Source: a virus
Taxonomy: Duplodnaviria > Caudoviricetes
Length of the DNA stretch: 61,712 nucleotides
Reading direction: 5' to 3' (one strand)
IMG/VR virus record: IMGVR_UViG_3300027917_000003
Span: 1 to 61,712 of that record
The notes under the pieces were generated by a model. The model saw only the letters and a program-made list of their open reading frames with translations, was not told the origin of the DNA and ran no database searches. Positions 12,925-34,676 of this stretch are shown here, piece by piece (position 1 is the first letter of the stretch; each line of letters begins with the position of its first letter). A program made the translations under genes and the position numbers.

Positions 12925-13454
12925 CAGCCCTGCCCCTCCTTTGGGTCGTGCTCGATGATCTGCGCCTTGGCGGCCAGTAGGGCCTGCTTAAAGGCCTCAC
13001 GGGCCTCGGGCGACAGGACGCGCACGTCCACGGTCGTGTGCTGGACGTGGACCGTGGCGTCCCCGGTGATCTCGGTGTTGACGCGCGGGCCGAGGGTGCG
13101 CGGCGCCATCTTCTCCGCCCGCCACTGCGCGGTCGAGATCTTGAGGCGCTGCGAGTTCACGTTCTCCTCGGTCGTCGCGTCGGCCATCGCCTCGATCTTG
13201 TCGAGCAGGAAGTCGGCGAGCGCCTCCCTCGCGCGCGCGCACCGTGCATCGAAATCGGGGCGGGCCGCTCTCCACCGATACAACGCCGCACGGCTCGGCA
13301 TCATCGGATCAGAGCAGATCTGCGAAAAATTCTCGCCATTCATCATGCGCTCGCAGATGATGTCGCCGATCTCGTCAGTGTACGACGATGGACGGCCCAC
13401 CGGGCGCGCAGTGACGCTCGGTGGCTTGTTCGCGGGGACTGGTTTCTTGACCAT
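12924..13454 (-). CDS. terS: Terminase small subunit
   Basis: GRPSSYTDEIGDIICER...G..IC..P.MPS...LYRW HTH (Sf6/P22 TerS-like); upstream of TerL. Confidence 0.85.
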   Translation of the reverse strand: MVKKPVPANKPPSVTARPVGRPSSYTDEIGDIICERMMNGENFSQICSDPMMPSRAALYRWRAARPDFDARCARAREALADFLLDKIEAMADATTEENVNSQRLKISTAQWRAEKMAPRTLGPRVNTEITGDATVHVQHTTVDVRVLSPEAREAFKQALLAAKAQIIEHDPKEGQG

Positions 13455-13732
13455 TACAGCTTGACCTCGACGGTCGCGGCGTAAGATCCGAGGGGCGTCT
13501 TATCGAAGCTCTCGATGGCGCTCATGTAGAGGTCGAAGATCTCCTGCGCCTGAGCGCGCTCGTGCTGGGGCTTCTTGCGCTCCGCGATGACCTTTTTCAG
13601 GATCTTCACGTCGAAGCCGTTTCCCTTCGCCTCCTTGTAAATCTCTGAAATGTCGAGCGAAATGGCTGTTTTTTCGTCCTCCATCTTCTCGATGCGCTGG
13701 ACGATGGTGGCGATCTGATTGTTCGTGGACAT
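13454..13732 (-). CDS. gapR: GapR-like (DUF2312) nucleoid DNA-binding protein
   Basis: IVQRIEKMEDEK..IS.DI.EIYKEAKGNGFDVKILKKVIAERK; GGAGGG RBS. Confidence 0.85.
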   Translation of the reverse strand: MSTNNQIATIVQRIEKMEDEKTAISLDISEIYKEAKGNGFDVKILKKVIAERKKPQHERAQAQEIFDLYMSAIESFDKTPLGSYAATVEVKL

Positions 13733-13840
13733 GCTTACCCCTCCTAATATCAACAAGGCGGTCAGTGTCTCGCAATTCGCTGACCCGGTCAATGCGCCGG
13801 ATTTCTAGGCGCTCCGAAGCCCACCGAAATTATTTTTCAA

Positions 13841-13944
13841 AAAAGTTATCCACAGGGCTCAAACGCTGTAGACAGGCGAAATTATTTCGTCTACAAGTTT
13901 AATCACGGTCGCTGATGACCTGACTGATTGATATGGAGACTGAC
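13841..13944 (+). promoter_or_regulatory. Early promoter cassette 1 (DnaA box 13846-13854)
   Basis: TTATCCACA; TAGACA -35; CGAA-N5-TTCG; CACGGTCGCTGATGACC leader. Confidence 0.75.
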
Positions 13945-14259
13945 ATGACCAAGATCCTCAACGTGACCACCGGCCCCGCCAACGAACTGTTCCCCGGCTG
14001 CAAGGGTTTTGTCGTTGTCGCCGAGACCCGCAAGGGCGAGGTGTTCATCCACGAGCGCAGCGACCTTTCTCTGGCCCAGTGCAAGCGCCTTGCTGATCGC
14101 GTTCAGGTCGCTGGCGAGATTGATGAAAGCCGTTGGGTTTTCTGGCGCACTGTTTACGGCTCTGACGCCTTCCTCGCAGAAGAGGCGGACGTTCACTTCA
14201 TCCTCGGCGGCGGGGGTCGTTACGAAGATCTCCCCGATAGCCTTCGCTCTCTCGCTTAA
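13945..14259 (+). CDS. Early hypothetical protein
   Basis: GGAGA RBS; start at the second ATG. Confidence 0.75.
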   Translation: MTKILNVTTGPANELFPGCKGFVVVAETRKGEVFIHERSDLSLAQCKRLADRVQVAGEIDESRWVFWRTVYGSDAFLAEEADVHFILGGGGRYEDLPDSLRSLA

Positions 14260-14309
14260 TCCAACCGGGGGCTTCGGCCCCCGCCCACCCCAACCGAATG
14301 GAGATTGAT

Positions 14310-14573
14310 ATGCAACGCCAAGTCCCCACCAAAGACACCACTATCCTCGGCATCATGCGCACCGCCGCCTTCTCGACGGGCTTCCGGGAGGCGCAGGCTG
14401 GCAAGCCTATCCGCTATGACGCCTATGAGCATGACGCCAATGGCCAGTGGAACTATGAGCGCGGGCGCATGCTGGGCCTGATGTTTGGCGGCCCCCTGAA
14501 GGTGGGGCGGGCGATCAGTCGGGCCGCAGCCCTTCACTTCGCGATGGCTATTAAGCAGAAGGTCATCCTGTAA
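14310..14573 (+). CDS. Early hypothetical protein
   Basis: ATGGAGATTGATATG leader. Confidence 0.75.
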   Translation: MQRQVPTKDTTILGIMRTAAFSTGFREAQAGKPIRYDAYEHDANGQWNYERGRMLGLMFGGPLKVGRAISRAAALHFAMAIKQKVIL

Positions 14574-14683
14574 AAAAGTTATCCACAGGGTGCGAAAATG
14601 CTTCGCACCCTGTTGACAGGCGAAATTTCTTCGTGCTAAGAGTTATGCACGGTCGCTGATGACCTGACCTGATGGAGATTGAT
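14574..14683 (+). promoter_or_regulatory. Early promoter cassette 2 (DnaA box 14579-14587, TTGACA 14613-14618)
   Basis: Includes the perfect 12-bp inverted repeat ACAGGGTGCGAA/TTCGCACCCTGT. Confidence 0.85.
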
Positions 14684-15295
14684 ATGCCCCTGTTCATCGA
14701 AAACGAAGCCGCCTACGAAGCCGCCATCGAGCGCAACATCGCCAACAACCGCCGCAAGACCGGCGCCCGCAAGTTCGCTGCGCTGTTCGAGGACGCGACC
14801 GCCATCATCGACTTCGTCGAGACCCGCGTGTCCGACGCTCAGGTGGCGCACTGGGCTCGCTTCGGTCGCGGCATGGAGGAGGCCTCCTTCATCGACGCAT
14901 GCTGGGCTGGCCTTCAGACTTTCGGCGGCCTGACCGAAAAGCAGGGTCTGGCGGTGCGCTCGATCATCGCCAAGAACGCCGAGCGCAAGGCTCAGTATCG
15001 CGCCGAGGCCCTCACCAAGGTCCATGTGGGCACGGTCGGCGAGCGCCGCGACTTCGACCTGACCGTGCGCTTCGTGACTGACTTCGAGACCCAGTTCGGC
15101 ATCACCAACGTGTTCGTCATGGAGGACGCCGAGGGCAATGTGGTCGTCTACAAGGGCGCTGGGAGCCTCTACAACGCCGATGGCCAGTTCGCGGTGAAGG
15201 GCGACAAGATCTCGGTCAAGGCGACCGTGAAGGAGCATGGCGAGCGCGATGGCGTGAAGCAGACCATCATCGCCCGCCCGAAGCAGAAGATCTGA
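14684..15295 (+). CDS. Early protein with probable C-terminal OB-fold
   Basis: HVGTVGER...V...D.EGN.VVYK...GD...VKATVKEH...G.KQT. Confidence 0.65.
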   Translation: MPLFIENEAAYEAAIERNIANNRRKTGARKFAALFEDATAIIDFVETRVSDAQVAHWARFGRGMEEASFIDACWAGLQTFGGLTEKQGLAVRSIIAKNAERKAQYRAEALTKVHVGTVGERRDFDLTVRFVTDFETQFGITNVFVMEDAEGNVVVYKGAGSLYNADGQFAVKGDKISVKATVKEHGERDGVKQTIIARPKQKI

Positions 15296-15338
15296 GGGGC
15301 TTCGGCCCCTCCCCACCCCTATCCTGATGGAGATTGAT

Positions 15339-15686
15339 ATGAACACCGTAGCTATCAAAGCCGCTCTTACCTATCCCAAGACCAAGAAAGGTGATGTCGT
15401 CGTCATCGAGCTGACGAGCAGCTATACGACCGCCAAGCTCAAGACGGTAAAAACATCGTCTTATTTCCTCGCCAAGGTCACCAAGACCCGCAATGGGCTT
15501 GCAGTGGACTATACGAAAGCCGATGGCGCCAAGGGGATCGTAGACACACGCCACCGCGTCATGGTGATCAGCCAAGCCGAGACGCAGGCTGCGGCGCGAG
15601 ACATGTTCGGCGCCAGTTTGGCAGACTTCGACAACGTCGATCAGGCGAAAGAGGCGATCCTTCAAAGGGTGAAAGACCTGAGCTGA
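15339..15686 (+). CDS. Early hypothetical protein
   Basis: Conserved leader; codon bias matches the genome. Confidence 0.75.
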   Translation: MNTVAIKAALTYPKTKKGDVVVIELTSSYTTAKLKTVKTSSYFLAKVTKTRNGLAVDYTKADGAKGIVDTRHRVMVISQAETQAAARDMFGASLADFDNVDQAKEAILQRVKDLS

Positions 15687-15687
15687 A

Positions 15688-15798
15688 AATAGTTATCCAC
15701 AGGGTGCGAAAATGCTTCGCACCCTGTTGACAGGCGAAATTTCTTCGTGCTAAGGTTCAATCACGGTCGCTGATGACCTGAACTGATGGAGATTAGAG
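15688..15798 (+). promoter_or_regulatory. Early promoter cassette 3 (DnaA box 15693-15701, TTGACA 15727-15732, TAAGGT 15751-15756)
   Basis: Near-identical to cassette 2. Confidence 0.85.
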
Positions 15799-16026
15799 AT
15801 GACCAACCGCTTCCCCTACGCCACCAAGATGCTCAACCTCGGCAAGCATGGCTACATGCTCCGCATCACCATTTCTCTCGCCAAGATTGAAGAGACGAAG
15901 GCGGAGATGATGTTGGATAGCGATATGATCAACTCAGCGGAAGAGCTGATCCGCTACCTCAATGCGGAAATCATCCGCGAAGAGGCCGACGCCGAAGAGT
16001 GTTATACCGACTGGGCCTCCGACTAA
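15799..16026 (+). CDS. Early hypothetical protein
   Basis: GGAGA RBS. Confidence 0.7.
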   Translation: MTNRFPYATKMLNLGKHGYMLRITISLAKIEETKAEMMLDSDMINSAEELIRYLNAEIIREEADAEECYTDWASD

Positions 16027-16072
16027 CCGGGGGCTTCGGCCCCCTTCCACCTCAACCCTGATGGAGATTGAT

Positions 16073-16351
16073 ATGACCTTCGACTTCTACAACCTCGGCG
16101 AGAACAGCGTAAGCTTCACCTTCTCGGCCTCCGGCGAGACCCTCTGGGACCAGATGTGCGAGGCCATCGCCGATCACATCTTCGGCGCTGACCCTTACGC
16201 CGAGACGCCCGCCCGCGACTTCGTGGAGATCGTCGAGATGCAGACGCCTGACGAGGCCGAGTACGTCGAGGCCGTCTTCGTGAAGGGCAAGCTGGTCGGC
16301 TCCCTCGGCGGCCCCTTCTGGCTGGACCCCAGCGAGTATGTGAAGATCTAA
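16073..16351 (+). CDS. Early acidic hypothetical protein (start MTFDFY)
   Basis: Conserved leader. Confidence 0.7.
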   Translation: MTFDFYNLGENSVSFTFSASGETLWDQMCEAIADHIFGADPYAETPARDFVEIVEMQTPDEAEYVEAVFVKGKLVGSLGGPFWLDPSEYVKI

Positions 16352-16353
16352 AA

Positions 16354-16465
16354 AAAAGTTATCCACAGGATGCGAAAATGCTTCGCACCCTGTTGACAGG
16401 CGAAAATAGTTCGCGTAAGTTCAAACCACGGTCGAGATAGAGACCGCAACCTGATGGAGATTGAT
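16354..16465 (+). promoter_or_regulatory. Early promoter cassette 4 (DnaA box 16359-16367, TTGACA 16393-16398, TAAGTT 16416-16421)
   Basis: Same repeat family as cassettes 1-3. Confidence 0.85.
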
Positions 16466-16765
16466 ATGACCGCTCTTAACACCGTCGCCGCCACCGAAGT
16501 CTACCTCGCCGCCAAGGCCCAGTTCGACGCTGCCGAGACCGTCCTCAAGGCCGCCAAGAAGGATGTCGTGGACATCGTCGGCGGTTACGGTTTCCTCGAA
16601 GGCGAGACCGCCGACCTCGACATCGCCTTGCAGGCCCGCAAGTCCATCGACGAGAAGCTCCTCCTCCAGTTCCTGACGCAGGAGCAGATCGACGCCTGCA
16701 AGGTCGAGGGCGCCGCCTTCCCGGTCGTGCGCATCAAGGCCAAGAAGGTCAAGAAGGCGGCCTAA
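16466..16765 (+). CDS. Early hypothetical protein
   Basis: Conserved leader. Confidence 0.75.
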   Translation: MTALNTVAATEVYLAAKAQFDAAETVLKAAKKDVVDIVGGYGFLEGETADLDIALQARKSIDEKLLLQFLTQEQIDACKVEGAAFPVVRIKAKKVKKAA

Positions 16766-16814
16766 TCATCAACCGGGGGCTTCGGCCCCCACCCACCCCT
16801 GAAGGAGAATTGAT

Positions 16815-17024
16815 ATGTACTACGTTGTCCCCAAAGATCGCTCCGTCCTCAAGAGCCTCAAGACCTTCGAGACCCTCTACGAAGCCCGCCGCTTCGCGGA
16901 AGACACCAAGCTGGTGACCAGCGAAAACTACGACATCATCCGCATGGACCGGGTCTGGACCACCCAGACCTTCGACGAGGCCCACCTCGCCTCGCTCGAC
17001 ATCCCCCACATGGCCCGCGATTAA
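16815..17024 (+). CDS. Early hypothetical protein
   Basis: AAGGAG RBS after a UUCG hairpin. Confidence 0.7.
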   Translation: MYYVVPKDRSVLKSLKTFETLYEARRFAEDTKLVTSENYDIIRMDRVWTTQTFDEAHLASLDIPHMARD

Positions 17025-17077
17025 TATCCCTTGGGGAGGGCTCAGGCTCTCCCCAGTCCCACGCAATGGAGATTGAA

Positions 17078-17275
17078 ATGCAAAGCTTCCTCGACGCCTA
17101 TCGCGCCAACCCCACGGATATGAACGCCCTCAAGCTGGCGCATCATGCCAAGAAACACCCCCGCACTGCTGACGCCTTGCCTATGGTCGAGGCCGTTCTG
17201 ATCGAAAGGGCGCGTGAACAGCTCGCGCCCTTTGTCGCCAAGCTCAACGCCATCGTGATCGGGGAGTTCATCTAA
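17078..17275 (+). CDS. Early hypothetical protein
   Basis: ATGGAGATTGAAATG leader. Confidence 0.7.
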   Translation: MQSFLDAYRANPTDMNALKLAHHAKKHPRTADALPMVEAVLIERAREQLAPFVAKLNAIVIGEFI

Positions 17276-17610
17276 TGAGCGAGTTTGAAAAGATGATGAA
17301 GAACCTCAGAGAGATGGCGGAAGACGCCGAGGCGGGCGATGGCATCGACTACCTCCTCAACATCGAGGATTATGACGGTGATCGTTTCACCATTGCAAAG
17401 CCCTATCATGACGACACGCTTATGCTGCGCATTGAGAACGATGACCTGATCGCAGGGTTCATCGTTAACGCACCGCGCGCGATGGCCATCGTCGGATGCC
17501 TGATGAAGCTCATCGAGGAGTGGGATTTCAAAAAAGACATCCAAGAGCTGAAGAAAGACGCGGATTACCTCGACGGGATCTTTGATGACGAGGAAGGGGA
17601 GGACAAGTGA
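17275..17610 (+). CDS. Highly acidic hypothetical protein
   Basis: 111 aa, D/E-rich, translationally coupled. Confidence 0.65.
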   Translation: MSEFEKMMKNLREMAEDAEAGDGIDYLLNIEDYDGDRFTIAKPYHDDTLMLRIENDDLIAGFIVNAPRAMAIVGCLMKLIEEWDFKKDIQELKKDADYLDGIFDDEEGEDK

Positions 17611-17813
17611 TGCCTCACCCCGTCCACACGTCCATGAACCCTGACGGCACCTTCTCCGTCTTCTACTTCGACCGCCTGATAGGCTGGATCGCCAAGGGCG
17701 CCATGAAGCGCAGGGGCAAACCTATCTGGCGAGCCCTCACCACCCACGGCGACCTTCGCCACGCCCACTCACAGGCCTCTGCGCGGGCCGCACTACTGGA
17801 GATGATGCATTGA
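17607..17813 (+). CDS. Hypothetical protein
   Basis: Coupled ORF. Confidence 0.55.
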   Translation: MMPHPVHTSMNPDGTFSVFYFDRLIGWIAKGAMKRRGKPIWRALTTHGDLRHAHSQASARAALLEMMH

Positions 17814-18031
17814 CCCCTGACCAACTGAAAGACATCATGCACAAGCTTGACTTCACAACGGCTGATGTGGCGACCGTCATGGGCGTCACCCGCCGCACCG
17901 TCCAGCTCTGGCTGGCGGGGACCAGTCCCGTGCCCCTCTCCGCCGCGCTCGTGCTGGAAGGGATTTTCGAGGGCCTGCTCTCAATGGAATGGGTCGAGGA
18001 CAAGATCGTCCTCGCACTGCGGATCGCCTGA
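17810..18031 (+). CDS. XRE-family HTH protein
   Basis: MTPDQLK...TTADVATVMGVTRRTVQLWLAG..PVP; TTG start after GGAGA. Confidence 0.8.
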   Translation: MTPDQLKDIMHKLDFTTADVATVMGVTRRTVQLWLAGTSPVPLSAALVLEGIFEGLLSMEWVEDKIVLALRIA

Positions 18032-21186: not shown

Positions 21187-21483
21187 TCAGACCTTCTCCG
21201 GCCCGTCAGGAAGAGGCATCCAATGGGTTGGCTCCGGCTCGAACATGTCCTCGCCATCATGGGTCGAGCCCCAACGCTCGACGACGACGCACCAGTCCAC
21301 GATCATGCACTCACCATCCCACCAGCCGAGGATAGCGGTCCCGTCCTTGGGGGCGGTTTCAATCGGTTGCCACGGGCTTCCGGCATAGCGCCGCTCGTCC
21401 GCCACCATCTTGTTGAGGGCAGTGGAGACTTCCGCCTCCACCTCCTCGCTGATCTCGGCAGGGATCACCTCACGCGGCGTCAT
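21187..21483 (-). CDS. DUF551-like protein
   Basis: WQPIETAPKDGT...PTHWMPLP. Confidence 0.75.
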   Translation of the reverse strand: MTPREVIPAEISEEVEAEVSTALNKMVADERRYAGSPWQPIETAPKDGTAILGWWDGECMIVDWCVVVERWGSTHDGEDMFEPEPTHWMPLPDGPEKV

Positions 21484-21958
21484 TAGCCACCTCCGGCGGA
21501 TCGGGAAGATGCATCCAGTGGGTCGGGGTCGTGTCCTCTGACCAGCTCCAGCCCGGCGTCATTTCTTCGTCGCCCTGCCAGAAATTATATGTCTCCCAGT
21601 GGCCGGGCTCGACAGTCCACTCACCATTCCCGTCCTTACCGGCCAAGATGATGATGGTGTTGTCCTTTGGCGCTGTGCTGATCGGCTTCCAGCACATCAT
21701 AAAGTATTTTCTTTCCTTCTTAACGGGCTCCTTCACAGGCTTCTCCGCCAGCGTCAAATTGAACCCGGCAAGGATATTTTTAAGCTCTTTCAAGCTCTTG
21801 GCGGCAAAGCCCGGAACGCGCATCCATTCAGCTTCGGTCCACTTCACGATGTCGCCAAGCGTCTCCATGTCTTCGCAAGCAACTCGATTTTTAATTCGGG
21901 CATGCAGTAGAGTGTCGGGAAGCTTGATGTCTTCAAAGCGAATATCCAAGGGGTTCAT
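21470..21958 (-). CDS. RNAP alpha-CTD-like domain fused to a DUF551-like domain
   Basis: RIKN....METLGDIVKWTEAEWMRVPGFAAKSLKELKNIL..FNLTL, then WKPISTAPKD...PTHWMHLP. Confidence 0.75.
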   Translation of the reverse strand: MNPLDIRFEDIKLPDTLLHARIKNRVACEDMETLGDIVKWTEAEWMRVPGFAAKSLKELKNILAGFNLTLAEKPVKEPVKKERKYFMMCWKPISTAPKDNTIIILAGKDGNGEWTVEPGHWETYNFWQGDEEMTPGWSWSEDTTPTHWMHLPDPPEVANDAA

Positions 21959-22206: not shown

Positions 22207-22218
22207 GAACTTTCCCCT

Positions 22219-24390
22219 CTAGTCGATTGATCCGATTACCTTAAGGCCTTGCATCTTCGTGTTCTTGTCCACGACCTCATAAGACAGAACTTGGTTAGAG
22301 AGCCACGTCTCCACCATCATATCGACCAGCTTTTCAGGCAGATCGAATTGCTGACCCAGAACCGCCGCCACATAGCGCCCCTGCTTGCGGGTCTGGGAAT
22401 AGCTTGAGAGCGGGCGCCCCGAGAACCACGCGACCCTAATCACATTGATCATGTCGCGGCAGACTTGTTTCTCGGGCCAGACGCTCTTGGGCGCCGCCTT
22501 CTCGTTCGCCTGCGCGGCGTAGAGACTGCCCTCGCCGGTGATGTCATTGACGACGACCTTCTTCAGTTCGAAGGGCAGGCGCCAGCCATCCTCGGCGCTC
22601 TTGATCTTGCGGGCGTGGATCTCGCCGACGCTCTCGCCCTCCTCGCGCTCGATGCCGAGCAGGAAGTCACCGGCGCCGTCGAAGACGGTCGAGCCGCGAA
22701 GGTTGCCAGCCCGGCTCGTGTGGTGGACGCCGACGACTGTCGCCCCGAAGGTCGTGCGGACGGCGTCGCAGGCGCCAATGAAGAGGGTCATGTCCTTCTG
22801 GAGGTTCTCGTCTGCGCCCGGCAAGACGCGGCTGACCGTGTCCACGAAGACCGTGACAGGCATCTCTCCCGCCAGCTTGCCAGCCTTGGCCACCGTGCGC
22901 AGGAGCCGCTCCACGTCCGCCTGAGCCATGAAATTGATGTTCTGGCGGATCAGGTAGAAGGGCAGGCCACGAACCTGAACGCCAGCCTCCCTCTCCCACG
23001 CGAGAATGCGGTTGCCGATGTCGCCAACGCCCTCGGACGAGATGTAGACGACCGGGCCAGACTTGTTGATCTTGCGTCCAAACCAGTCTGCGCGCTGGGC
23101 GCAGATCGACAGGCCCATGCCGATTGTGATGAAGCTCTTGCCGCATCCCGGAGGCCCGTAAACGAAACCGAGCGCGGTTTCGATCATCAGCTTGTCGATC
23201 AGGTACTTGGGCTTGGGGAGGGACAGGATGCCCTCCACGTCGAGCAGCTCATACTCGTCCTCGACTGTCGGTTTTACGACATCCACGAACAGCTCGCCCG
23301 TTTCCTCATCGACCTTGTAGAACTTGACGGGCTGCGGCTCATCGGCCTGATCGAAAGGGCGGCTGGGGCGCTCCACCTTCGCATGCTCTGCTACCTTGCC
23401 GTCCCACTGCTCAATGGCCAAGGTCCATTTGTGGCGGAACAGGCTGAACCCGCGACCCTCCCGTTCGAGGAGGTCAAAGTTCGAGGCGCCGGGCATATGC
23501 AGGCGGCTCTTCACCTTGCGCTCGTAGGTGGCGAAGGCGTCATTCATGGCCGTTTCGCTCTCCACCTTCGAGGGCGGAATGGGCGCGTCCCGATAGAGAT
23601 CGACGACCGCAGCCCACACGAGCTTGGTCATATAGTCCTCGCGGCCATCGACGATGTTGCCAAAGTTATCCACAGCTTTATTTGGTGACGCAGTTTTTTC
23701 GCCTGTTACACGGTTCACGCCACTTGACCCGCCATGCTCGATGGCGAGCTTCGTGATCTCGTCACAGAACCATTGTGGCGCTGTGGCGATCTCCATTTCC
23801 CACGGCTCGTGGCCCTCCTTCCAGCGGTAGGACTTGCCGCTCTCGTGGGTGCTGGGGGGCATCATGGCGAAGCCACCCTGCCCCCTGATGTCCACCCCGA
23901 TGCTTGTCTTGCATGTCGGGGGAACCCAGCCCAGAGGGGCGCGGAAGAAGAGCTGAACGCCTCCGCCGCCGGTGGCCTGCTCGACCGTGTCCAGCTCACC
24001 GGCGTTCTGTTTCATGTGAAACATGTCGTCCCACCACGCCTGCGCACGGACATCCTTGTGCAGGTCGAGATCCACGACGAAGATCCCATTGGAGCAGGCG
24101 CCCGCGATCAGGCCCATGTTGTTGCGGCGGGCATGCTCGCCATCCTCGCCATACCAACGCTCGAAGGTGAAGTCAGGGATCAGCTCGTTTTCCAATTCGC
24201 GCCACTTCGGCAACGCCGGGCGCTTCCATTGGTTCTTGTTTTCCCTGTGACTCATGGCCGGGACGACCTGCATCCCGTTGCCACGATACATGCGGGCCCA
24301 CTCTGCCGGATCAGCGAAGTCTGGGTCAAACGAAGCGTTCATATTAATTGTTCCATCATTTCCATCTGAAGGCAGCGACATCACGTCCAT
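22219..24390 (-). CDS. Bifunctional Prim-Pol primase / RepA-type (AAA_25) helicase
   Basis: NMGL..G...VVDLD, TGGGG.QLFF, VDIRGQGG..PPS; Walker A GPPGCGKS; VDT; VHHT; LRGS. Confidence 0.9.
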   Translation of the reverse strand: MDVMSLPSDGNDGTINMNASFDPDFADPAEWARMYRGNGMQVVPAMSHRENKNQWKRPALPKWRELENELIPDFTFERWYGEDGEHARRNNMGLIAGACSNGIFVVDLDLHKDVRAQAWWDDMFHMKQNAGELDTVEQATGGGGVQLFFRAPLGWVPPTCKTSIGVDIRGQGGFAMMPPSTHESGKSYRWKEGHEPWEMEIATAPQWFCDEITKLAIEHGGSSGVNRVTGEKTASPNKAVDNFGNIVDGREDYMTKLVWAAVVDLYRDAPIPPSKVESETAMNDAFATYERKVKSRLHMPGASNFDLLEREGRGFSLFRHKWTLAIEQWDGKVAEHAKVERPSRPFDQADEPQPVKFYKVDEETGELFVDVVKPTVEDEYELLDVEGILSLPKPKYLIDKLMIETALGFVYGPPGCGKSFITIGMGLSICAQRADWFGRKINKSGPVVYISSEGVGDIGNRILAWEREAGVQVRGLPFYLIRQNINFMAQADVERLLRTVAKAGKLAGEMPVTVFVDTVSRVLPGADENLQKDMTLFIGACDAVRTTFGATVVGVHHTSRAGNLRGSTVFDGAGDFLLGIEREEGESVGEIHARKIKSAEDGWRLPFELKKVVVNDITGEGSLYAAQANEKAAPKSVWPEKQVCRDMINVIRVAWFSGRPLSSYSQTRKQGRYVAAVLGQQFDLPEKLVDMMVETWLSNQVLSYEVVDKNTKMQGLKVIGSID

Positions 24391-24393
24391 CCC

Positions 24394-25125: not shown

Positions 25126-25138
25126 ATCAATCTCCATT

Positions 25139-25927: not shown

Positions 25928-25945
25928 GGCCCCCTCCAAGTGATT

Positions 25946-26040: not shown

Positions 26041-26058
26041 GTTGAAATTGAGGTACAC

Positions 26059-27062: not shown

Positions 27063-27125
27063 AGTTTCGCCCATGTGGGCAAAGGCAAGGGGCCAGCCAT
27101 ATGGCCCCATCATGGAGTATGGAAA

Positions 27126-27800: not shown

Positions 27801-27844
27801 TCAAACCGGGGCGGGCTTCGGCTCGCCCCATCACCAACTGGAGA

Positions 27845-28165
27845 GTGACATTGAAGTTTCTGCTCACGATGAACATGCCAGCCCACCGAGGTGGCCCCAT
27901 TCACCAAATCACCTGTGAGCATCCCGCAAAGAACCTCACCGAGTTCTGCGACGCCCTAGAAAAGAGCGAGTTCATCCTTGTCGAAGAGTTCTATCGAGAT
28001 ACCGAAGCGCCGGAAGGCTCAGACCCCTACTATTCGGTCGGTTTTACTGCGCTCAACTATCGTGTCATCGGCAAGATTAAAGAGCTGGGGACTGTCACGA
28101 CCGCCAAAAAGTCCATTAAATTTGGAGATAGATATGAACAGAACCTTCGAAAGGGTAACCTTTAA
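27845..28165 (+). CDS. Hypothetical protein
   Basis: GGAGAG RBS; start uncertain. Confidence 0.6.
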   Translation: MTLKFLLTMNMPAHRGGPIHQITCEHPAKNLTEFCDALEKSEFILVEEFYRDTEAPEGSDPYYSVGFTALNYRVIGKIKELGTVTTAKKSIKFGDRYEQNLRKGNL

Positions 28166-29123: not shown

Positions 29124-29134
29124 GGAGTGCAGAA

Positions 29135-29467
29135 ATGAACCACACTGATATTTTGACCCAGTCCGTTCTCACGCTCCGCGACCGTGACGCCCAGTATGGC
29201 AGCATGCAGGACACCATGATCCGTGCATGTGAGATCTTCGAGATGATCACTGGCAAGGAGCTGTCACCCTATCACGCCAACATCTTCATGCATGCTCTGA
29301 AGCTGGCGCGTGTCAGGACATCTCCCGGCAAGCTCGACAACTACATTGACGGCATCAACTATCTGGCCTTCGCTGGCGAGTTTGCCGTGCCCACGGGCAG
29401 CGCCGAAGAGATCGTCAACGCCGGGATGCGTGACCTCGTCGATCAGCTCAACACGCAGGAGGGCTAG
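29135..29467 (+). CDS. DUF6378-like protein
   Basis: RDAQYG...LKLAR...DNYIDGINYLA. Confidence 0.75.
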   Translation: MNHTDILTQSVLTLRDRDAQYGSMQDTMIRACEIFEMITGKELSPYHANIFMHALKLARVRTSPGKLDNYIDGINYLAFAGEFAVPTGSAEEIVNAGMRDLVDQLNTQEG

Positions 29468-29746
29468 ATGGAGATGGAGTTAAACGACAAGCATCTGACG
29501 ATGCTGCTCGCGGCGATTGGTCAGAAGCTCTCCAATTCTGAAGAGGAGGCATATGGGCCGAGCCTCGCCTGTGTCGCCAGCTTCGCCACGAAGCTCATCA
29601 CGACTGTCGTCGTCGGCCATGCTGACAGTCGCGAGGAGGCCCTTGAGGGCGTCCGCAGCGCCCTCGCAGACTGCGAGATAATGGTCAACAAGGCCTATGA
29701 CGTTATCGAACCGTTGTTGGCTATGAGAGATGGAAAGGCTCACTAA
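29468..29746 (+). CDS. Hypothetical protein
   Basis: In operon. Confidence 0.6.
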   Translation: MEMELNDKHLTMLLAAIGQKLSNSEEEAYGPSLACVASFATKLITTVVVGHADSREEALEGVRSALADCEIMVNKAYDVIEPLLAMRDGKAH

Positions 29747-30015
29747 TGTCTTACGCAAAAGGCGATCTCACCTGTGACGAGAAGCTCAGGGCGGCCTATG
29801 CCTACCTGATCAACGGCATCCCGCAGCACCACATTGCCGCCCTCTACGGCGTCAATCAGGGCCGCATTAGTGAGGCCGTGGCGCTCGTGGCCAAGGCATG
29901 CGGGTTCCCCATCAAGGGAGGCGCCGTGCAGGACGTGTCGGACGAGTTCGGCATGCCGTACACCCCGGCGGACGCCAGCTTCCTCAAGAATAGGACCACC
30001 CCGGAAAACAGGTAG
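29746..30015 (+). CDS. Small HTH protein
   Basis: GIPQHHIAALYGVNQGRISE. Confidence 0.65.
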   Translation: MSYAKGDLTCDEKLRAAYAYLINGIPQHHIAALYGVNQGRISEAVALVAKACGFPIKGGAVQDVSDEFGMPYTPADASFLKNRTTPENR

Positions 30016-30112
30016 TCCCAAATTGGTACAGCGTATGCGTGTCTGCGTTAATGAAATGGCGACTTCTCTGCCCTAGAGTGGGGAAGTCGCCGCCATTGAT
30101 ATGGAGATTGAC

Positions 30113-30358
30113 ATGGCCCGCATACAGGACAAGTTGAGGAAGACCAACCTCTTCATCGACCCCGCCTACCCCGTCAGCAAGAGTGTGCTGATCAACCCGG
30201 ACGGCCCCGCCGCCGCCGACTACATCGACAACCTCGTCCAGAAACTGAGCCATATCGCCCACCTCGCGATCAACAACATTGACGACGAGGCCGTGAAGGC
30301 CGACATCTGGAAGTCTTATTATGAAGCAGTGGGAGTTAAATATGACATTGAATGCTGA
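30113..30358 (+). CDS. Hypothetical protein
   Basis: ATGGAGATTGACATG leader. Confidence 0.65.
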   Translation: MARIQDKLRKTNLFIDPAYPVSKSVLINPDGPAAADYIDNLVQKLSHIAHLAINNIDDEAVKADIWKSYYEAVGVKYDIEC

Positions 30359-30426
30359 GTTTCAGATCGTTGGAGCCCTGATGCTCCTTGTGGCCGTCAA
30401 CATCATCATCGCGTGGGGGATGTAAC

Positions 30427-30675
30427 ATGAGAAAGCCGGAACGCTTTGCAGGCGAGGACTACCAAGGCGAGCGCCGCAAGGGCACACGCTTTGGAACCCT
30501 GTGGGCCAACTATGAGACAGGCGAAGCCGACGTGACGCTGACGCTTGAGTTCTGCGACGAGGACTGGCTGATGCGGGCCGATCTCTTGCAGGATGTCATT
30601 GGCCTGCTCAATCGCGAGTATGAAAAAGCCCTCAATGATATTGAGAGGGCTTTCCCGGTCAAAAAAAATGACTGA
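30427..30675 (+). CDS. Hypothetical protein (start MRKPER)
   Basis: In operon. Confidence 0.6.
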   Translation: MRKPERFAGEDYQGERRKGTRFGTLWANYETGEADVTLTLEFCDEDWLMRADLLQDVIGLLNREYEKALNDIERAFPVKKND

Positions 30676-31048
30676 CCTCGTTCAACAATTACGCGACCGG
30701 ATTGCGGAGCTGGAGGAAGAGATCCGCCAGATCCGCAACGACATGTTGCAGGACAGCAATGCCTTCACCCGCATCCTGTCGAAGCAGCAATCGGCATTGC
30801 TGGCGGCGATCTGTAAGAGGCCGACCGCCAACTATGCCTATCTCGACAACGTCACCGAGCATTTCGGTCTCTACAATCGATATGAGGGCGAGATGCACAT
30901 TACGCTCAGGACGCGGGTCGCTGTGTGGAAGCTTCGCAAGAAGCTGAAGCAGTACGGCATTGAGGTCCAGATCCTGCGCGGCACCGGCTACTACATTGAT
31001 GATGAGAACAGAGAGAAATTAAAGAAGCTGATGGAGGTGAAGGAATGA
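30668..31048 (+). CDS. Coiled coil + OmpR/CtrA-type winged-helix DNA-binding domain, no receiver domain
   Basis: LSKQQSALL...VAVWKLRKKL...I....RGTGYYI. Confidence 0.75.
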   Translation: MTDLVQQLRDRIAELEEEIRQIRNDMLQDSNAFTRILSKQQSALLAAICKRPTANYAYLDNVTEHFGLYNRYEGEMHITLRTRVAVWKLRKKLKQYGIEVQILRGTGYYIDDENREKLKKLMEVKE

Positions 31049-31149
31049 TCGCAATCATTGAGATCCTGCTCGTGGTATTGGCCTGCATGATACTGGCAGG
31101 CATCATCCTCTTCGTCGCTCGTATGATCGGAACCTTGTGGGGGAAGTGA
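31045..31149 (+). CDS. Small membrane peptide (34 aa)
   Basis: MIAIIEILLVVLACMILAGIILFVAR; GGAGG RBS. Confidence 0.5.
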   Translation: MIAIIEILLVVLACMILAGIILFVARMIGTLWGK

Positions 31150-31150
31150 G

Positions 31151-31435
31151 ATGACTGAATGGCAACCAATCGAAACCGCGCCAAAGGATGGAACACATTT
31201 TCTGTCAACATCCAGATATTTGGGTGGTGAAATTTTTATCTGCACTTGGAGCGACAGAACATTGGTTCACAGTGATGGAAAAGAGCATCACAGTGGTTGG
31301 TGGGTGGTTGGTATTCCTAAACGGTATTATGCTGGTTGGGGGCCATTTTATTCTCCAATCAAGCAAGATGACCTGATGCCTACCCACTGGATGCCTTTGC
31401 CTGCGCCGCCTAAAAGGGGGAAGAAAAATGGCTGA
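31151..31435 (+). CDS. DUF551-like protein
   Basis: WQPIETAPKDGT...PTHWMPLP. Confidence 0.75.
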   Translation: MTEWQPIETAPKDGTHFLSTSRYLGGEIFICTWSDRTLVHSDGKEHHSGWWVVGIPKRYYAGWGPFYSPIKQDDLMPTHWMPLPAPPKRGKKNG

Positions 31436-31712
31436 TCTCATCATGCCGCGCCGCAAGTTCCTCACGGGTCTCATGGGCCTTGTGGCGGCGCCTGCGGTCG
31501 TGAAGGCCGTCAACATCATGCCGGTGAAGTCCTTTGTTGAGCCGCAGCTCTATACGTTCCCGAATAGGGTGTGGGTGGCGCCTAGCAGCGGCGTCAACCT
31601 TGCCCAGATCCGCGAGCTGCTCATGCCCGGCCTTCGAAAGATGGTGGATGACATGTACACAGAGCATCCCGGCCAATGGAAGTCGATATTTTCGGGAGAG
31701 ACAGATGGTTAA
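31428..31712 (+). CDS. Tat-like signal fused to a capsid-N-terminus-like peptide
   Basis: RRKFL...AAPAVVKA; VNLAQIRELLMPGLR. Confidence 0.75.
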   Translation: MADLIMPRRKFLTGLMGLVAAPAVVKAVNIMPVKSFVEPQLYTFPNRVWVAPSSGVNLAQIRELLMPGLRKMVDDMYTEHPGQWKSIFSGETDG

Positions 31713-31893
31713 AAAACGCGAGCCTTTCATCGTCCACTGCGGCGAATGCAAACACGAATGGACGGCGCTCTATTCACCCATGCTGCTTGATAAGGTCGTC
31801 ACGATCACGATGTCGCTGCACTGCCCCACATGCGCCGCAGGCCCCATGCAGATCTTCTGCGGCCCCGCGCCGAAGGAGAAGGCCGATGGCTGA
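31705..31893 (+). CDS. Zn-ribbon protein
   Basis: CGEC...CPTC. Confidence 0.6.
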   Translation: MVKKREPFIVHCGECKHEWTALYSPMLLDKVVTITMSLHCPTCAAGPMQIFCGPAPKEKADG

Positions 31894-32185
31894 CCTTCAA
31901 GAAAAGTCCATTGAGCTGTGGCGTGAAGAGGCTTGGAAGCTTCACGCCGAGCTTCGAAAGATGGAAGACAAGGTCGCGGGTCTGATACGCCTTGCAGCGC
32001 AGCATATGGACGAGGAGAACAAGGCCCTCGCGCGCGTCGTGATGCTGGAGCAGGCCCTTGATGACGCCCTCGGGGAGTGGGAATACAACGCCACGACCTA
32101 CAAGAGTGATCCGCTTATCAAAAAACACGCGGATCTCGAACAGATCGCCCACTATCGCAAGTTGCTCAACGACAGGCTAAAGTAG
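31886..32185 (+). CDS. Hypothetical coiled-coil protein (start MADLQE)
   Basis: AAGGAG RBS. Confidence 0.6.
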   Translation: MADLQEKSIELWREEAWKLHAELRKMEDKVAGLIRLAAQHMDEENKALARVVMLEQALDDALGEWEYNATTYKSDPLIKKHADLEQIAHYRKLLNDRLK

Positions 32186-32244
32186 GCGTCCCGAAACCGC
32201 ATGGCCGATGGAGAGAATGGTCCTGCCCGCAACAGGAGTTGAGT

Positions 32245-32814
32245 ATGAACAAGATCGCGCTGGCCCTTGTGGCCTTCACCTTGGCGCTGCCCGCCGCCGC
32301 AGACGAAATGACTGCGGCAGAGTTCTTCGCCAGAGATAAGGCAAACAAATGGACCGGCGAGCTGGTCGCCCCGAGAAACCCCTATGGGAAGCTGGTGAAG
32401 CCGTCCAAGATGACGGCGGATAAGCAGAAGGTGATCGACGCCATTGCGCTTCACGTCACCGCCCAGATCGGCTCAAAGTGGGTGGACACGGCCATGCGGA
32501 TCGCGAAGCTGGAGAGCGGCTTTAGTTGCCGTGCGAAGGGTCCAAAGACCCGCCACGGCCACGCCAAGGGCGTCTTCCAGCTCATCGACAGTTCAGCGCG
32601 AACTTTAGGCTTTGACCCGGCGCAGATGTACGACTGCGATCAGAACATCCTCGCGGGGATTGCGCACATGAAGGCCTGCATTGATCTGGGCCATGTGAGC
32701 GAACCTCGCGAGATGGCGGCCTGTCATGTGGCGGGCTGGGCTAAATGGAATGTGAGGCTGGCTCGGCGCCCAGAGCTGTACAAGAGACGGTACGTTGCCC
32801 TCGCAATGAAATGA
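32245..32814 (+). CDS. Secreted lytic transglycosylase (SLT-like)
   Basis: Sec signal peptide; IAKLESGF, AKGVFQL, D.DQNI.AG. Confidence 0.8.
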   Translation: MNKIALALVAFTLALPAAADEMTAAEFFARDKANKWTGELVAPRNPYGKLVKPSKMTADKQKVIDAIALHVTAQIGSKWVDTAMRIAKLESGFSCRAKGPKTRHGHAKGVFQLIDSSARTLGFDPAQMYDCDQNILAGIAHMKACIDLGHVSEPREMAACHVAGWAKWNVRLARRPELYKRRYVALAMK

Positions 32815-32830
32815 TCAAATGGAGAATAAA

Positions 32831-33334
32831 ATGAGGACGCTTGAGGAACTCCACGCACATTACAAGGCCGTTCGCGCCAGATTAGATAACCCCGTTAAGA
32901 AGGAACCCGCAGTCCGCCTCATTTACCCGGAACCAGAACCGGCGCCGTACCCAGACCCCCTCGACGTTGTGGAAGTTGTTGAAGCCCTGCCGGAGGAGCC
33001 CATTGCCGCCCCTCCGGTGGCCACTGAGACCCCTGCAAGAAAGATCCTGTCAGAGGTAGCCGAGAAGCATGGAATGCCTCCCACGGTCTTCCGCAGCAAG
33101 AGCAGGGACGCAACCTATGTGCTGTGCCGTCAGGAGGCGGCTTATCGGCTCAAGACCGAGCTGTCTTTTTCCCTGAGCCAGATTGGCCGCCTGATGGGCC
33201 ACCGGGACCACACGACCGTCCTCCACGCCATCCGTCGATACGAAAAAAATCTCGCCCTCGGCTTGGGGCCTTGGGCGAGCAAGTGCGTCTCGAACGCCTG
33301 TGTCACTCAGGTGGAACCCACAGGCGCGACATGA
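32831..33334 (+). CDS. DnaA C-terminal (domain IV) DNA-binding protein
   Basis: ILSEVA..HG.....RSKSR....CRQEAAY....LSFSLSQIGRLMGHRDHTTVLHA; no AAA+ domain. Confidence 0.9.
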   Translation: MRTLEELHAHYKAVRARLDNPVKKEPAVRLIYPEPEPAPYPDPLDVVEVVEALPEEPIAAPPVATETPARKILSEVAEKHGMPPTVFRSKSRDATYVLCRQEAAYRLKTELSFSLSQIGRLMGHRDHTTVLHAIRRYEKNLALGLGPWASKCVSNACVTQVEPTGAT

Positions 33335-33561
33335 TCATGGATGATCTCAGCTCATCATGCAAGGAGGCCCTTCCCCAGTCGGGGGAGGGTCAACCCATAT
33401 TAGGGGTGACGATATTGGAGCTTCGGCTCTTTTCGTGCCGCTACATAATTGGCTCCGACGAAAACGTCGGGGCCATTTTTTGTGGGAGCCAGACGGCCAA
33501 GGGCTCCTACTGCCAGACCCACTACAGCCTGTGCTACATCAAGACCAAGCCGCTCACTTGA
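33331..33561 (+). CDS. GcrA C-terminal-domain-like protein
   Basis: TILEL...CRYIIG......FCG.....SYC..H...Y. Confidence 0.8.
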   Translation: MIMDDLSSSCKEALPQSGEGQPILGVTILELRLFSCRYIIGSDENVGAIFCGSQTAKGSYCQTHYSLCYIKTKPLT

Positions 33562-34150
33562 TATTCATAAAGCTGCTCAGGCAATAGCGCCCGAGGCCCT
33601 TCCACGGCTCGACGCCGTCCTTCATTTTGACTTGCGTGACGCCGTGGCGCAGGCAGGACGGGAAGATGATCAACATATTGTTCTCGACCAAAATTGTTTC
33701 GTCGAGGTCCGAGAAGACCAGATCGCCGCCCTCGAAATTCCGTGGCTCTTTGAAATGCCAAGAGAGCGCGGTGACCGTCGCTGTATCCGAGTGCGGTTTG
33801 TAGTGATCCGTGGCCTCGTAATAGCTCAACAAGGTCGTGTCTGCGTTCACCGCATTGATGCACTTGGTGAGCGGGTGCAGATCCGCAAAAGCCTTGAACA
33901 CGGGCGCCGAGAAAATTTTCCGGTTGACCTTCAGGATGTTTGACATCGAACGGTCGGCATAGATGTTGTCGAGGAAGACGCCCCTGTTCTTCTTCATCAT
34001 CGGATTGAGCTGGCCGGTGGCCTGCGGTGGCTGGAGCTTGTGCTTGTGCGTCAAGAACTCCAGCTCTTGCCAGATCAGGGCCTGTTCCTCATCGGTGTAG
34101 AAGTTTCGCACGAGTAGGTAGTAGGGGTGCGGCGTTTTAAGGATCTCCAT
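33554..34150 (-). CDS. 2OG-Fe(II) oxygenase
   Basis: Y..HSD, FEGGDL, IFPS..RH.V, R. Confidence 0.85.
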   Translation of the reverse strand: MEILKTPHPYYLLVRNFYTDEEQALIWQELEFLTHKHKLQPPQATGQLNPMMKKNRGVFLDNIYADRSMSNILKVNRKIFSAPVFKAFADLHPLTKCINAVNADTTLLSYYEATDHYKPHSDTATVTALSWHFKEPRNFEGGDLVFSDLDETILVENNMLIIFPSCLRHGVTQVKMKDGVEPWKGLGRYCLSSFMNIK

Positions 34151-34662
34151 TACAGGATCTCCTTCAACTTGAAGGCGACGGTGACGCGCAGATCGGTACA
34201 AAAGCGCGATGGATCAGCGCCAAAGTGATAGAGGGTGCTGTTGAACATGCATGCGCAGTTCCGTTTTGGATAGGCCGTGTGGGTCTGGCCGTCCTCAAAC
34301 ACAACAGTCTGGCCGCCCCACCTGACGTCCCACTCGGGGTTCACATAGAAGACGAAGGTCTTGTAAAGCTCTGGCGCATAAGTCTCGGGGTCAACGTCTG
34401 TATGGGCGTCGCCGGGGAGGCCGTGCGTCTGGCCATTGGCGTAGACGCGCTCAATCTCAAACTTCTTGCCGGTCAGTTCTTCAATCCGAAGGAGAAATTT
34501 GTCGTGGAAAAAAGGATCTGCGGAAAGGTCCATATACCAGAACTGGATCTGCGCCGGGCTCAGTTTGCTGAAGCCGCTGAACTTCCACTCGTTCCCGTGA
34601 AGGGTTTTGGCGACGACATAAGCGTAATCGTCCTCGGAGAGGACATCCTCAAACCACTGCAT
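34150..34662 (-). CDS. 2OG-Fe(II) oxygenase
   Basis: YANGQT..HTD, W...WGG.T, FNS...H, R.TVAFKL. Confidence 0.85.
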   Translation of the reverse strand: MQWFEDVLSEDDYAYVVAKTLHGNEWKFSGFSKLSPAQIQFWYMDLSADPFFHDKFLLRIEELTGKKFEIERVYANGQTHGLPGDAHTDVDPETYAPELYKTFVFYVNPEWDVRWGGQTVVFEDGQTHTAYPKRNCACMFNSTLYHFGADPSRFCTDLRVTVAFKLKEIL

Positions 34663-34676
34663 ATTGACCCCCTCGG

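Follow-up and report, generated by a model that had tools for sequence, protein, structure and literature searches.

The virus record IMGVR_UViG_3300027917_000003 (Duplodnaviria; Caudoviricetes) is 61,712 bases long, and the window considered here is that whole record, in which positions are counted from the first base. Because the ends of the record are identical over 99 bp, we take it to be a closed phage genome of about 61.6 kb. This paper concerns two small overlapping genes in it, one for an isolated domain IV of DnaA (the DnaA-IV protein) and one for the sigma-70-interacting domain (SID) of GcrA, which regulates the cell cycle (the SID protein), together with a set of DnaA boxes that stand in front of promoter-like elements elsewhere in the genome. 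The two genes are a conserved unit, and we tentatively read their products as a transcription factor pair that would work on the host sigma-70 polymerase at the DnaA-box promoters. A reading made from the sequence alone had grouped them with three further genes, for a winged-helix protein, a GapR-like protein and a fusion of the RNA polymerase alpha C-terminal domain (alpha-CTD), as one toolkit of truncated alphaproteobacterial cell-cycle regulators. All five genes are where that reading placed them, those for GapR and the alpha-CTD fusion on the minus strand, with end coordinates that include the stop codon (Table 1).

Table 1 Features of the phage genome, with positions in the 61,712-base window
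Feature	Position	Strand	Description
DnaA-IV protein	32831..33334	+	167 aa (171 aa from start 32819)
SID-only protein	33331..33561	+	76 aa; GcrA sigma-70-interacting zinc domain without the GcrA DNA-binding domain
Intrinsic-terminator-like hairpin	33450..33485	+	11-bp stem, loop AAAA, then TTTTTTGTGG; from a terminator scan
Promoter module 1	13839..13897	+	A-tract; DnaA box 13846-13854; 14-nt spacer; TAGACA (-35) 13869-13874; then 17-nt spacer with CGAAA..TTTCG palindrome and -10-like TACAAG (putative -10)
Promoter module 2	14572..14641	+	A-tract; DnaA box 14579-14587; TTGACA 14613-14618, 25 nt after the box
Promoter module 3	15686..15755	+	Layout of module 2; DnaA box 15693-15701; TTGACA 15727-15732
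Promoter module 4	16352..16421	+	Layout of module 2; DnaA box 16359-16367; TTGACA 16393-16398
Small-gene operon	13933..18031	+	At least 11 small genes without assigned function, carrying the four DnaA-box promoter modules
Fifth exact DnaA box	23666..23674	+	Antisense inside the primase-helicase gene, beside a T-rich stretch, outside the promoter modules
Primase-helicase gene	22219-24390	-	
Winged-helix protein	30668..31048	+	126 aa; N-terminal coiled coil, probable OmpR/PhoB-type winged helix-turn-helix, no receiver domain
GapR-family nucleoid protein	13454..13732	-	92 aa; first gene of the leftward terS-terL-portal block
alpha-CTD + DUF551 fusion	21470..21958	-	162 aa; alpha-CTD at residues about 14-72
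Leftward structural block	13792, round the record ends, to 33554	-	Starts GapR-terS-terL; open reading frame (ORF) call
Rightward small-gene block	13933-18031	+	ORF call
Leftward replication block	18102-25939	-	ORF call
Rightward block holding the DnaA-IV/SID pair	26059-33561	+	ORF call

A DnaA domain IV without the rest of DnaA

The first gene of the pair encodes a member of the Bac_DnaA_C family (PF08299; 59.9 bits against a cut-off of 31.5), whose residues 75-140 cover profile positions 3-68 of 69, and it matches E. coli DnaA domain IV in the Protein Data Bank (PDB; 1j1v_A, E 9.8e-6), which bears out the earlier identification. We prefer the start at 32831, because GGAG lies 8 nucleotides (nt) upstream of it and the homologues begin with MRTLEEL or MMTLEEL. 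No match to Bac_DnaA or AAA, that is, to the AAA+ domain III or to domain I, was found in the 167 residues, of which 1-71 are a helix and a disordered linker. The AlphaFold model places this helix at residues 8-23 as counted from 32819, followed by a low-confidence, proline-rich linker of about 48 residues (24-71), by domain IV at residues 72-147 with a predicted local distance difference test score (pLDDT) of about 90 or more, and by a disordered tail. In the family alignment the N-terminal stretch TLEELHAHYKAVRARL is nearly invariant. At E<=0.001 the family has 241 relatives, and the 120 of these that are listed are 155-180 aa long with 89-100% of the query matched, so that the protein is conserved beyond domain IV.

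The residues that read the DNA in DnaA have been kept. Base-specific contacts of E. coli DnaA are described for residues 399, 423, 432-435 and 438-439 (PMC5043019, PMC5742627), and an ungapped alignment to 1j1v_A places these on R96, S120, R129, D130, H131, T132, L135 and H136. Seven of the eight are identical, the exception being a Ser in place of P423, and R96, D130, H131 and T132 are the same in all of 33 family members. The HTH (helix-turn-helix) fold and these seven contacts are thus common to the phage protein and DnaA domain IV, and the phage genome carries the consensus 9-mer as a candidate target. The phage protein differs from DnaA in having no domains I-III and in having a conserved N-terminal helix and proline-rich linker of its own; lacking domains I-III and the AAA+ ATPase, it has no means of oligomerising or of unwinding an origin in the manner of DnaA. 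When deposited phages were searched by tblastn, 14 records matched, through domain IV alone and at 46% identity or less, and a scan of genome contigs gave domain-IV-level matches only (56% identity or less), mostly to chromosomal DnaA or to distant small proteins. Standalone viral Bac_DnaA_C clusters are present in the ESM Atlas by automatic annotation, and a search by title or abstract found no study of such proteins.

A sigma-docking domain without the rest of GcrA

The start of the second gene overlaps the DnaA-IV stop codon as ATGA. Its product is matched by Pfam GcrA (PF07750) at 32.3 bits (cut-off 26.9), with only profile positions 101-146 of 155 covered, and by the crystallised GcrA fragment 5yix_B (E 2.3e-5), in agreement with the earlier assignment to GcrA's C-terminal domain. 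In GcrA, residues 1-45 bind DNA, whereas residues 108-173 are the SID, a loop-rich fold with a CCCH zinc site spaced C-X14-C-X9-C-X2-H that binds region 2 of sigma-70 (PMC5887438). The phage protein has this zinc motif exactly (C36, C51, C61 and H64) and begins about 24 residues ahead of the zinc domain, the N-terminal DNA-binding domain being absent. Six GcrA residues are reported as essential for sigma-70 binding, W120, G129, F130, F132, Y142 and Y151 (PMC5887438), and the phage protein has Y, G, A, F, Y and Y there: four are identical, one is a conservative change (W to Y) and one is changed. Over a set of 24 SID genes the aromatic positions are conserved. It has further been reported that GcrA deleted at its N-terminus still reaches sigma-70 promoters in vivo (PMC4647560).

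Compared with GcrA of Caulobacter crescentus (173 aa; PDB 5YIX, 7YE1), the phage protein therefore shares the zinc spacing and most of the essential residues, but at 76 aa it lacks the DNA-binding domain and the long linker, and it has CRY[IV] where GcrA has CKWPIG. Judged by its sequence it is a polymerase-docking module without a DNA reader. The sequence-only reading had held that each regulator keeps its DNA-binding part and loses its regulatory part, which is correct for the DnaA-IV protein, with its seven of eight contact residues and no AAA+ domain, and the wrong way round for GcrA, where the sigma-docking zinc domain is what was kept. Its suggestion that the GcrA tail acts at GANTC sites falls with the loss of the residues corresponding to 1-45, since a protein that has lost the DNA-binding N-terminus and kept the sigma-docking part cannot compete at GANTC sites, nor can it read methylated GANTC.

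A search of the full library gave 228 cluster representatives related to the SID protein at E<=0.001, and 38 of the best 150 are 110 aa or shorter, so that SID-only proteins form a class. Elsewhere the same CRY-type SID is joined to GcrA's own DNA-binding domain or to segments that match HTH_38, HTH_23 or Myb-like domains weakly and below threshold. The proteins P0247, P0272 and P0300 have GcrA-type SIDs behind N-terminal segments of this weakly matching kind in place of GcrA's own DNA-binding domain, which suggests that the SID is a reusable polymerase anchor, a portable module. Among deposited phages, tblastn with the SID gave no match in 50,697 records at E<=1e-3.

The hairpin listed in Table 1 lies inside the SID coding sequence, 76 nt ahead of the stop codon. 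Hairpin and T-run are found together in 8 of the 11 SID genes examined (the window and L010, L011, L012, L014, L015, L019 and L020), and RNAalifold gives 9 pairs, of which 4 have changed on both sides without loss of pairing. The T-run, which in the window is spelled by the rare codons ATT-TTT-TGT (expected joint usage 0.015 in this genome), is kept in all 8 hairpin-bearing genes, whereas the hairpin-less L016 and L017 use TTC there. Since the SID stop overlaps that of the convergent 2OG-oxygenase gene by 8 nt, the hairpin is probably the terminator of the operon, written into coding sequence. This oxygenase gene (33554-34201, minus strand) is the first of two overlapping neighbours for 2OG-Fe(II) oxygenases, the other at 34150-34662 on the same strand, and both lie at the distal end of the leftward block.

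The two genes are inherited together

To assess linkage, 80 viral loci from a profile search were split according to the motif H-x-HY-x-AV-R at the N-terminus of the DnaA-IV protein. A SID gene was found nearby on the same strand at 22 of the 27 loci with the motif, compared with 3 of the 53 without it (Fisher p 5e-12, uncorrected for relatedness and overstating independence, because the loci are related). It stood directly downstream at 12 loci, 0.3-2 kb downstream at 4 and 0.2-1 kb upstream at 9, and that the linkage survives three arrangements is more telling than the Fisher p. On opposite strands the SID motif had 0 matches in 916 kb. Among relatives with at least 54% identity the SID gene comes directly after the DnaA-IV gene in 12 of 12, and of nine close viral loci the seven that extend downstream all have it following DnaA-IV.

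The other genes behave differently. Among 8 close relatives with upstream DNA, 2 have the winged helix, and so does the complete relative G001, where it shares one operon with the DnaA-IV and SID genes; G001 gave no match to GapR, to the alpha-CTD fusion or to the primase-helicase of the present phage. The overlapping pair at 32831-33561 is thus a conserved unit with the winged helix as a frequent companion, while winged helix, GapR and alpha-CTD-DUF551 fusion are less constant and form no fixed kit. Co-occurrence across related phages, a check named by the sequence-only reading, was seen for DnaA-IV with SID only. A complex prediction from the DnaA-IV family alignment and the SID alignment (score 0.00, mark 0.32) gave no answer, neither for nor against contact between the two proteins.

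DnaA boxes in front of promoter-like elements

The exact box TTATCCACA occurs five times in the genome, always on the plus strand, where 0.07 +/- 0.26 occurrences were expected and none of 100 shuffles reached five. Four of the boxes (at 13846, 14579, 15693 and 16359) lie in intergenic gaps of the small-gene operon, each upstream of TTGACA or TAGACA, and they belong to modules with a common order: an A-tract, the box, a spacer, TTGACA/TAGACA, 17 nt that contain a CGAAA..TTTCG palindrome, then a -10-like hexamer, and last a leader that is conserved. Module 1 stands in the divergent gap between GapR and the operon. In three of the four modules the spacer between the box and the -35 is a hairpin with a 9-bp stem, which in module 2 reads GGGTGCGAA-AATGC-TTCGCACCC; module 2 is assigned to repeat family D1. 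The core TTGACAGGCGAAA, with one mismatch or none, is found at these four places only. That the modules are promoters is argued from the repeated TTGACA, from its position and from its conservation; the -10 elements and start sites are putative. The 24 sequencing runs listed for 13700-16500 are all DNA metagenomes.

An inverted repeat, GGCGAA..TTCG[CT][CG], occupies the interval between the -35 and the -10-like hexamer at 13875-13891, 14619-14635, 15733-15749 and 16399-16415, and also in relatives. It resembles the operator site of a dimeric protein, for which the coiled-coil winged helix would be one candidate binder.

The operon itself is rich in repeats, with repeated leaders and ribosome sites (GATGGAGATTGATATG), GGGGCTTCGGCCCC hairpins and the repeat families D2, D3, D5 and D7. 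The tetraloop hairpins and a shared leader with ribosome site (CCTGATGGAGATTGATATG) lie between small genes at 14267-14330, 15296-15359, 16030-16093, 16776-16822 and 17035-17098 (repeat families D2, D3, D5), and a similar ribosome site precedes the gene at 30101. The operon proteins have no Pfam match at the cut-off (one sub-threshold HTH_23) and fall in PHROG families of unknown function only.

The relatives G002 and G003 have the fifth box as well, within the same coding context. It may have arisen by chance from conserved codons or may mark an origin.

We then searched ten related virus records, among them the complete relative G001 (TerL 87% identical), and found 9 exact boxes against 0 for a reversed-pattern control. 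Four of the nine are in modules (two in G003, one each in G004 and G010), two are the copies in the primase gene and three are in other contexts. Over the window and the relatives together, the distance from box to -35 falls into three classes, three modules measuring 14 nt, five 25 nt and one 35 nt; the window has the first two, and the 35-nt case is in a relative. The spacer sequences are unrelated between the classes. As the distances differ by 11 and 10 nt, the box stays on the same helical face, a phasing that would be the geometry expected of a factor touching polymerase. At a more distant locus, L180 (record G006, DnaA-IV 29% identical), an exact box at position 1501 on the reverse strand, apparently intergenic, is followed after 26 nt by TTGACG and after 35 nt by TTGACA, the latter in phase with the spacing classes. 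The DnaA-IV protein of G001 has N at the position of E. coli H439 and its genome has the box TTATCCATA.

A putative transcription factor pair

Taking the domain identities, the conserved residues, the placement and phasing of the boxes and the gene linkage as observed, our preferred though tentative explanation is that the two proteins form a phage transcription factor pair by which the host sigma-70 polymerase is steered at promoters with a DnaA box. Domain IV of the first protein would read the phage boxes 14 or 25 bp (35 bp in a relative) upstream of the -35 and would thereby regulate the four promoters of the small-gene operon; to judge by the upstream, phased geometry, it is more likely to be an activator or timer than a repressor. 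Since the cognate sites are in the phage's own promoters, phage transcription should be at least one target of the DnaA-IV protein. The second protein, having no DNA-binding domain of any kind, should dock on the sigma-70 holoenzyme and ride on it. Two roles are conceivable for it: it may form with the first protein a two-piece counterpart of GcrA, with DNA reader and polymerase anchor on separate chains, or it may occupy the GcrA site on sigma-70 and so blunt GcrA-dependent transcription of the host. The winged helix, GapR and the alpha-CTD-DUF551 fusion would be further DNA or polymerase modules of host origin. DNA binding by the first protein and sigma binding by the second are inferred from sequence, and so are the sign of the regulation and any mutual contact of the proteins.

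A stronger form of this proposal is doubtful. It would have the pair as a two-chain GcrA counterpart, in which the zinc domain docks on sigma-70 region 2, the intragenic terminator gates how much of this docking subunit is made, and the holoenzyme, given a new DNA specificity, is re-aimed at DnaA-box promoters; the reader would be tethered through its N-terminal helix and 48-residue linker, and two cell-cycle regulators of the host would have provided a new route to the appropriation of sigma.

Several observations weigh against the transcription factor pair. The four modules escaped an E. coli-type promoter scan, because their -10 is not TATAAT-like, and since the -35 of all four promoters is already at or near the consensus, an activator may not be required. 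Three of the four window modules are copies of one repeat, so that their boxes are not four independent events, and the phasing is drawn from only three spacing classes. In G001, where the gene pair is kept, one module has the box with one mismatch and another has no box. On the protein side, F130 of GcrA, one of the six essential residues, is Ala in the phage SID, and P125 and A150 differ too. The linkage may in part be inherited synteny, and the SID gene was not seen at 5 of the 27 motif-bearing loci, two of which have less than 450 nt of downstream DNA. Finally, no fusion of DnaA-IV with SID was present among 33 SID relatives scanned, and 28 longer DnaA-IV relatives were all full-length DnaA, although the absence of fused forms is weak evidence because the search was word-based.

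The boxes could equally be read by host DnaA, and this is the starting point of a quite unlikely alternative, in which host DnaA couples the small-gene operon to the replication state of the host until the phage DnaA-IV protein, made later, displaces it, switching the promoters off or making them independent of the host, with a separate role for the SID. The boxes are indeed the universal high-affinity DnaA consensus, the strong -35 elements suggest that host polymerase can fire these promoters unaided at the start of infection, and timing of phage genes by the host cell-cycle regulator CtrA has been documented in alphaproteobacterial phages (PMC9437464). The same paper reports that DnaA sites show no asymmetry of position across the phage genomes analysed there, and this alternative leaves the linkage of DnaA-IV to SID unexplained, as it does the conserved N-terminal helix and linker. 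An action directed at the host itself, the sequence-only reading in corrected form, is unlikely, though compatible with our own proposal: the DnaA-IV protein would sit on the boxes of the host oriC and DnaA regulon, blocking or mimicking DnaA, the SID would displace GcrA and the winged helix would act on a host regulon, so that the cell cycle is frozen in a state favourable to the phage. A protein with seven of eight base-reading residues and no AAA+ domain could bind any DnaA box unregulated, a SID-only protein should compete with GcrA for the same surface of sigma-70, and the phage, in which no DNA polymerase gene was detected beyond a Prim-Pol primase domain, would depend on the host replisome; its copies of GapR and alpha-CTD point to a wider habit of borrowing chromosome and transcription parts from the host. 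A purely host-directed decoy, however, has no need of placed and phased boxes in the phage genome, the winged helix has no shown tie to CtrA, and the set is not inherited together as a kit.

A role of the DnaA-IV protein as an origin-binding protein, which at the boxes between 13.8 and 16.4 kb or at the box in the primase gene would recruit the Prim-Pol/AAA_25 primase-helicase, we hold to be very improbable. The genome does encode this primase-helicase and no recognisable initiator (PHROGs, Pfam), and the box inside its gene, next to the T-rich stretch, is exact and kept in G002 and G003. That conservation carries no information, however, because the box is within conserved coding sequence, while the four intergenic boxes are 666-1114 bp apart and each tied to a promoter, unlike the cluster of an origin, and the linkage to a sigma-70-binding domain points to transcription.

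Relation to known regulators

Whole homologues of GcrA are known in phages, as the sequence-only reading had stated: gp222 of phiCbK and its relatives is thought to manipulate cell-cycle transcription of the host (Gill et al. 2012, PMC3556154). As described there, those are complete proteins, whereas here the sigma-docking domain stands alone and is paired with a DnaA-IV gene. The layout of the first protein, a helix, a long disordered linker and a DNA-binding domain, parallels the order of DNA-binding domain, linker and SID that is described for GcrA (PMC5887438). The closest characterised precedent for a DnaA-like HTH in a transcription factor is GafA of Rhodobacter capsulatus and GafY/GafZ of Caulobacter, which are described as activators of gene transfer agents whose DnaA-like HTH binds upstream of sigma-70 promoters; GafY contacts sigma-70, and in many Hyphomicrobiales a small DnaA-like gene is split off before the partner gene (PMC9638019, PMC11150451). 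In these accounts the palindromic site of the GafZ-type partner is between the -35 and the -10, where the phage modules carry a palindrome as well. As far as these descriptions go, the likeness is functional and architectural only. For GafA no more than a tentative match to DnaA is described, whereas the phage protein clearly belongs to Bac_DnaA_C and keeps the box-reading residues, and its partner is a GcrA SID, for sigma region 2, rather than GafZ. Searches of open-access text, excluding supplements, found no literature on SID-only proteins, on a DnaA-IV/SID pair or on DnaA-box promoter modules in phages.

In phage T4, AsiA (which binds region 4 of sigma-70) and MotA (whose box is at -30) redirect host polymerase to a class of phage promoters. 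The present pair resembles them as a small sigma-70-binding protein with a separate DNA-binding activator, a functional analogy in which no homology is implied, and it differs in its docking domain, which is of the GcrA type, for region 2, and in having its box upstream of a -35 that is intact.

Phage homologues of GcrA have been known since phiCbK with their mode of action untested, and this pair is a cleaner entry point, a natural separation-of-function allele in which the sigma-docking domain is alone beside a reader of DnaA boxes. Its candidate cis sites, with their phasing and three spacing classes, make direct predictions for reporters and footprints. Should the two proteins work together, the mode of activation by GcrA, with an anchor on sigma region 2 and a movable reader, would be modular and could be rebuilt with a different reader, and DnaA domain IV would join the heads of transcription factors, as proposed for GafA; should the SID block GcrA instead, it would be a ready-made inhibitor of an essential alphaproteobacterial regulator. 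Both families are abundant in metagenomes (the 241 and 228 relatives given above), while no close relative was found in a deposited phage.

Winged helix, GapR and the alpha-CTD fusion

The winged-helix protein had been described as CtrA-like and lacking a receiver. The second half of this is right, as no receiver domain is present in the protein. Trans_reg_C (PF00486) scores 15.1 bits, below its cut-off of 26.2, but a profile of 37 relatives, in a family of 201 at E<=0.001, matches PDB chains of the OmpR/PhoB family (E 0.0014 to 0.09), and 26 of the 37 have a Trans_reg_C match at E<=0.1, the best at 0.00043. The AlphaFold model (pLDDT 77.5) has its first 27 residues as one long helix where a receiver domain would be, and its top Foldseek matches are the DNA-binding domains of AdeR, ArlR and ToxR (E 0.01, probability 1.0, template modelling score 0.45/0.56, 80 columns), with no match at E<=0.001. 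Profile and model together point to a probable OmpR/PhoB-type winged helix behind an N-terminal coiled coil. No likeness to CtrA in particular emerged, and no CtrA family was matched in NCBIfam at E<=0.01. The CtrA-type site TTAA-N7-TTAA occurs 0 times in the genome, which is uninformative because only 0.09 occurrences are expected.

The other two identifications are sound. GapR_DNA-bd (PF10073) matches at 83.9 bits (cut-off 22.6) and the NCBIfam model at 81.1, below its equivalog cut-off of 140; GapR chains in the PDB match with E from 2.6e-21 (6cfy_A) to 1.5e-13, among them Caulobacter GapR 6jyk_A at 1.2e-17. A search for literature on GapR/DUF2312 in phage found none. In the fusion protein, RNA_pol_A_CTD (PF03118) reaches 24.5 bits (cut-off 23.8) and DUF551 20.7 bits, and of 35 PDB matches at E<=1 the 33 best are alpha subunits, led by 9zum_A (E 7.4e-8), with Caulobacter 7ye1_A at E 1.1e-6. 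The presence of Caulobacter chains among the best matches of both proteins is only a hint at the host. In all, the genome has three DUF551-type domains (21187-21483 and 21470-21958, minus strand; 31151-31435, plus strand), each at 20.0-21.7 bits and just below the Pfam cut-off of 22, one being that fused to alpha-CTD.

Genome context

PHROGs and Pfam identify small and large terminase, portal, major head protein, tail fibres and endolysin, as well as a RuvC-like resolvase, a PD-(D/E)XK nuclease and the Prim-Pol/AAA_25 primase-helicase. The earlier remark that the phage has no replicative polymerase of its own agrees with these searches, which detected no DNA polymerase family among 51 proteins (PHROGs, E<=1e-5) or 32 proteins (Pfam) and the primase-helicase only. 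No Rfam family and no tRNA (ARAGORN) was found in the window. No deposited phage close to the window was found, a blastn search with 28000-35900 matching tail-fibre DNA only. An ORF of 957 aa lies at 50052-52925 on the minus strand.

The E. coli-type scan called no clear promoter for the operon at 26059-33561. The divergent gap at 25940-26059, between the replication block and this regulator operon, holds a TTGACA and the two palindromes GACATTTTGTC and GACAAATTGTC, with no DnaA box, and is probably the promoter/operator of the operon.

GANTC is scarce in the window, with 25 sites against 277 +/- 15 expected. We considered this depletion as a signal of CcrM/GcrA and rejected it, as 24 of the 64 six-base palindromes are absent too and in G001 the shortage of GANTC is much milder, with about 78 sites where 4-mer context predicts about 128, although many six-base palindromes are missing there as well. 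The scarcity of GANTC reads, on sequence counts, as general avoidance of restriction sites. Palindrome avoidance in the window is strong, 12 of the 24 absent palindromes having an expectation of at least 10, with CCGCGG (0 against 61), CCCGGG (0 against 55) and CTCGAG (0 against 48) among them.

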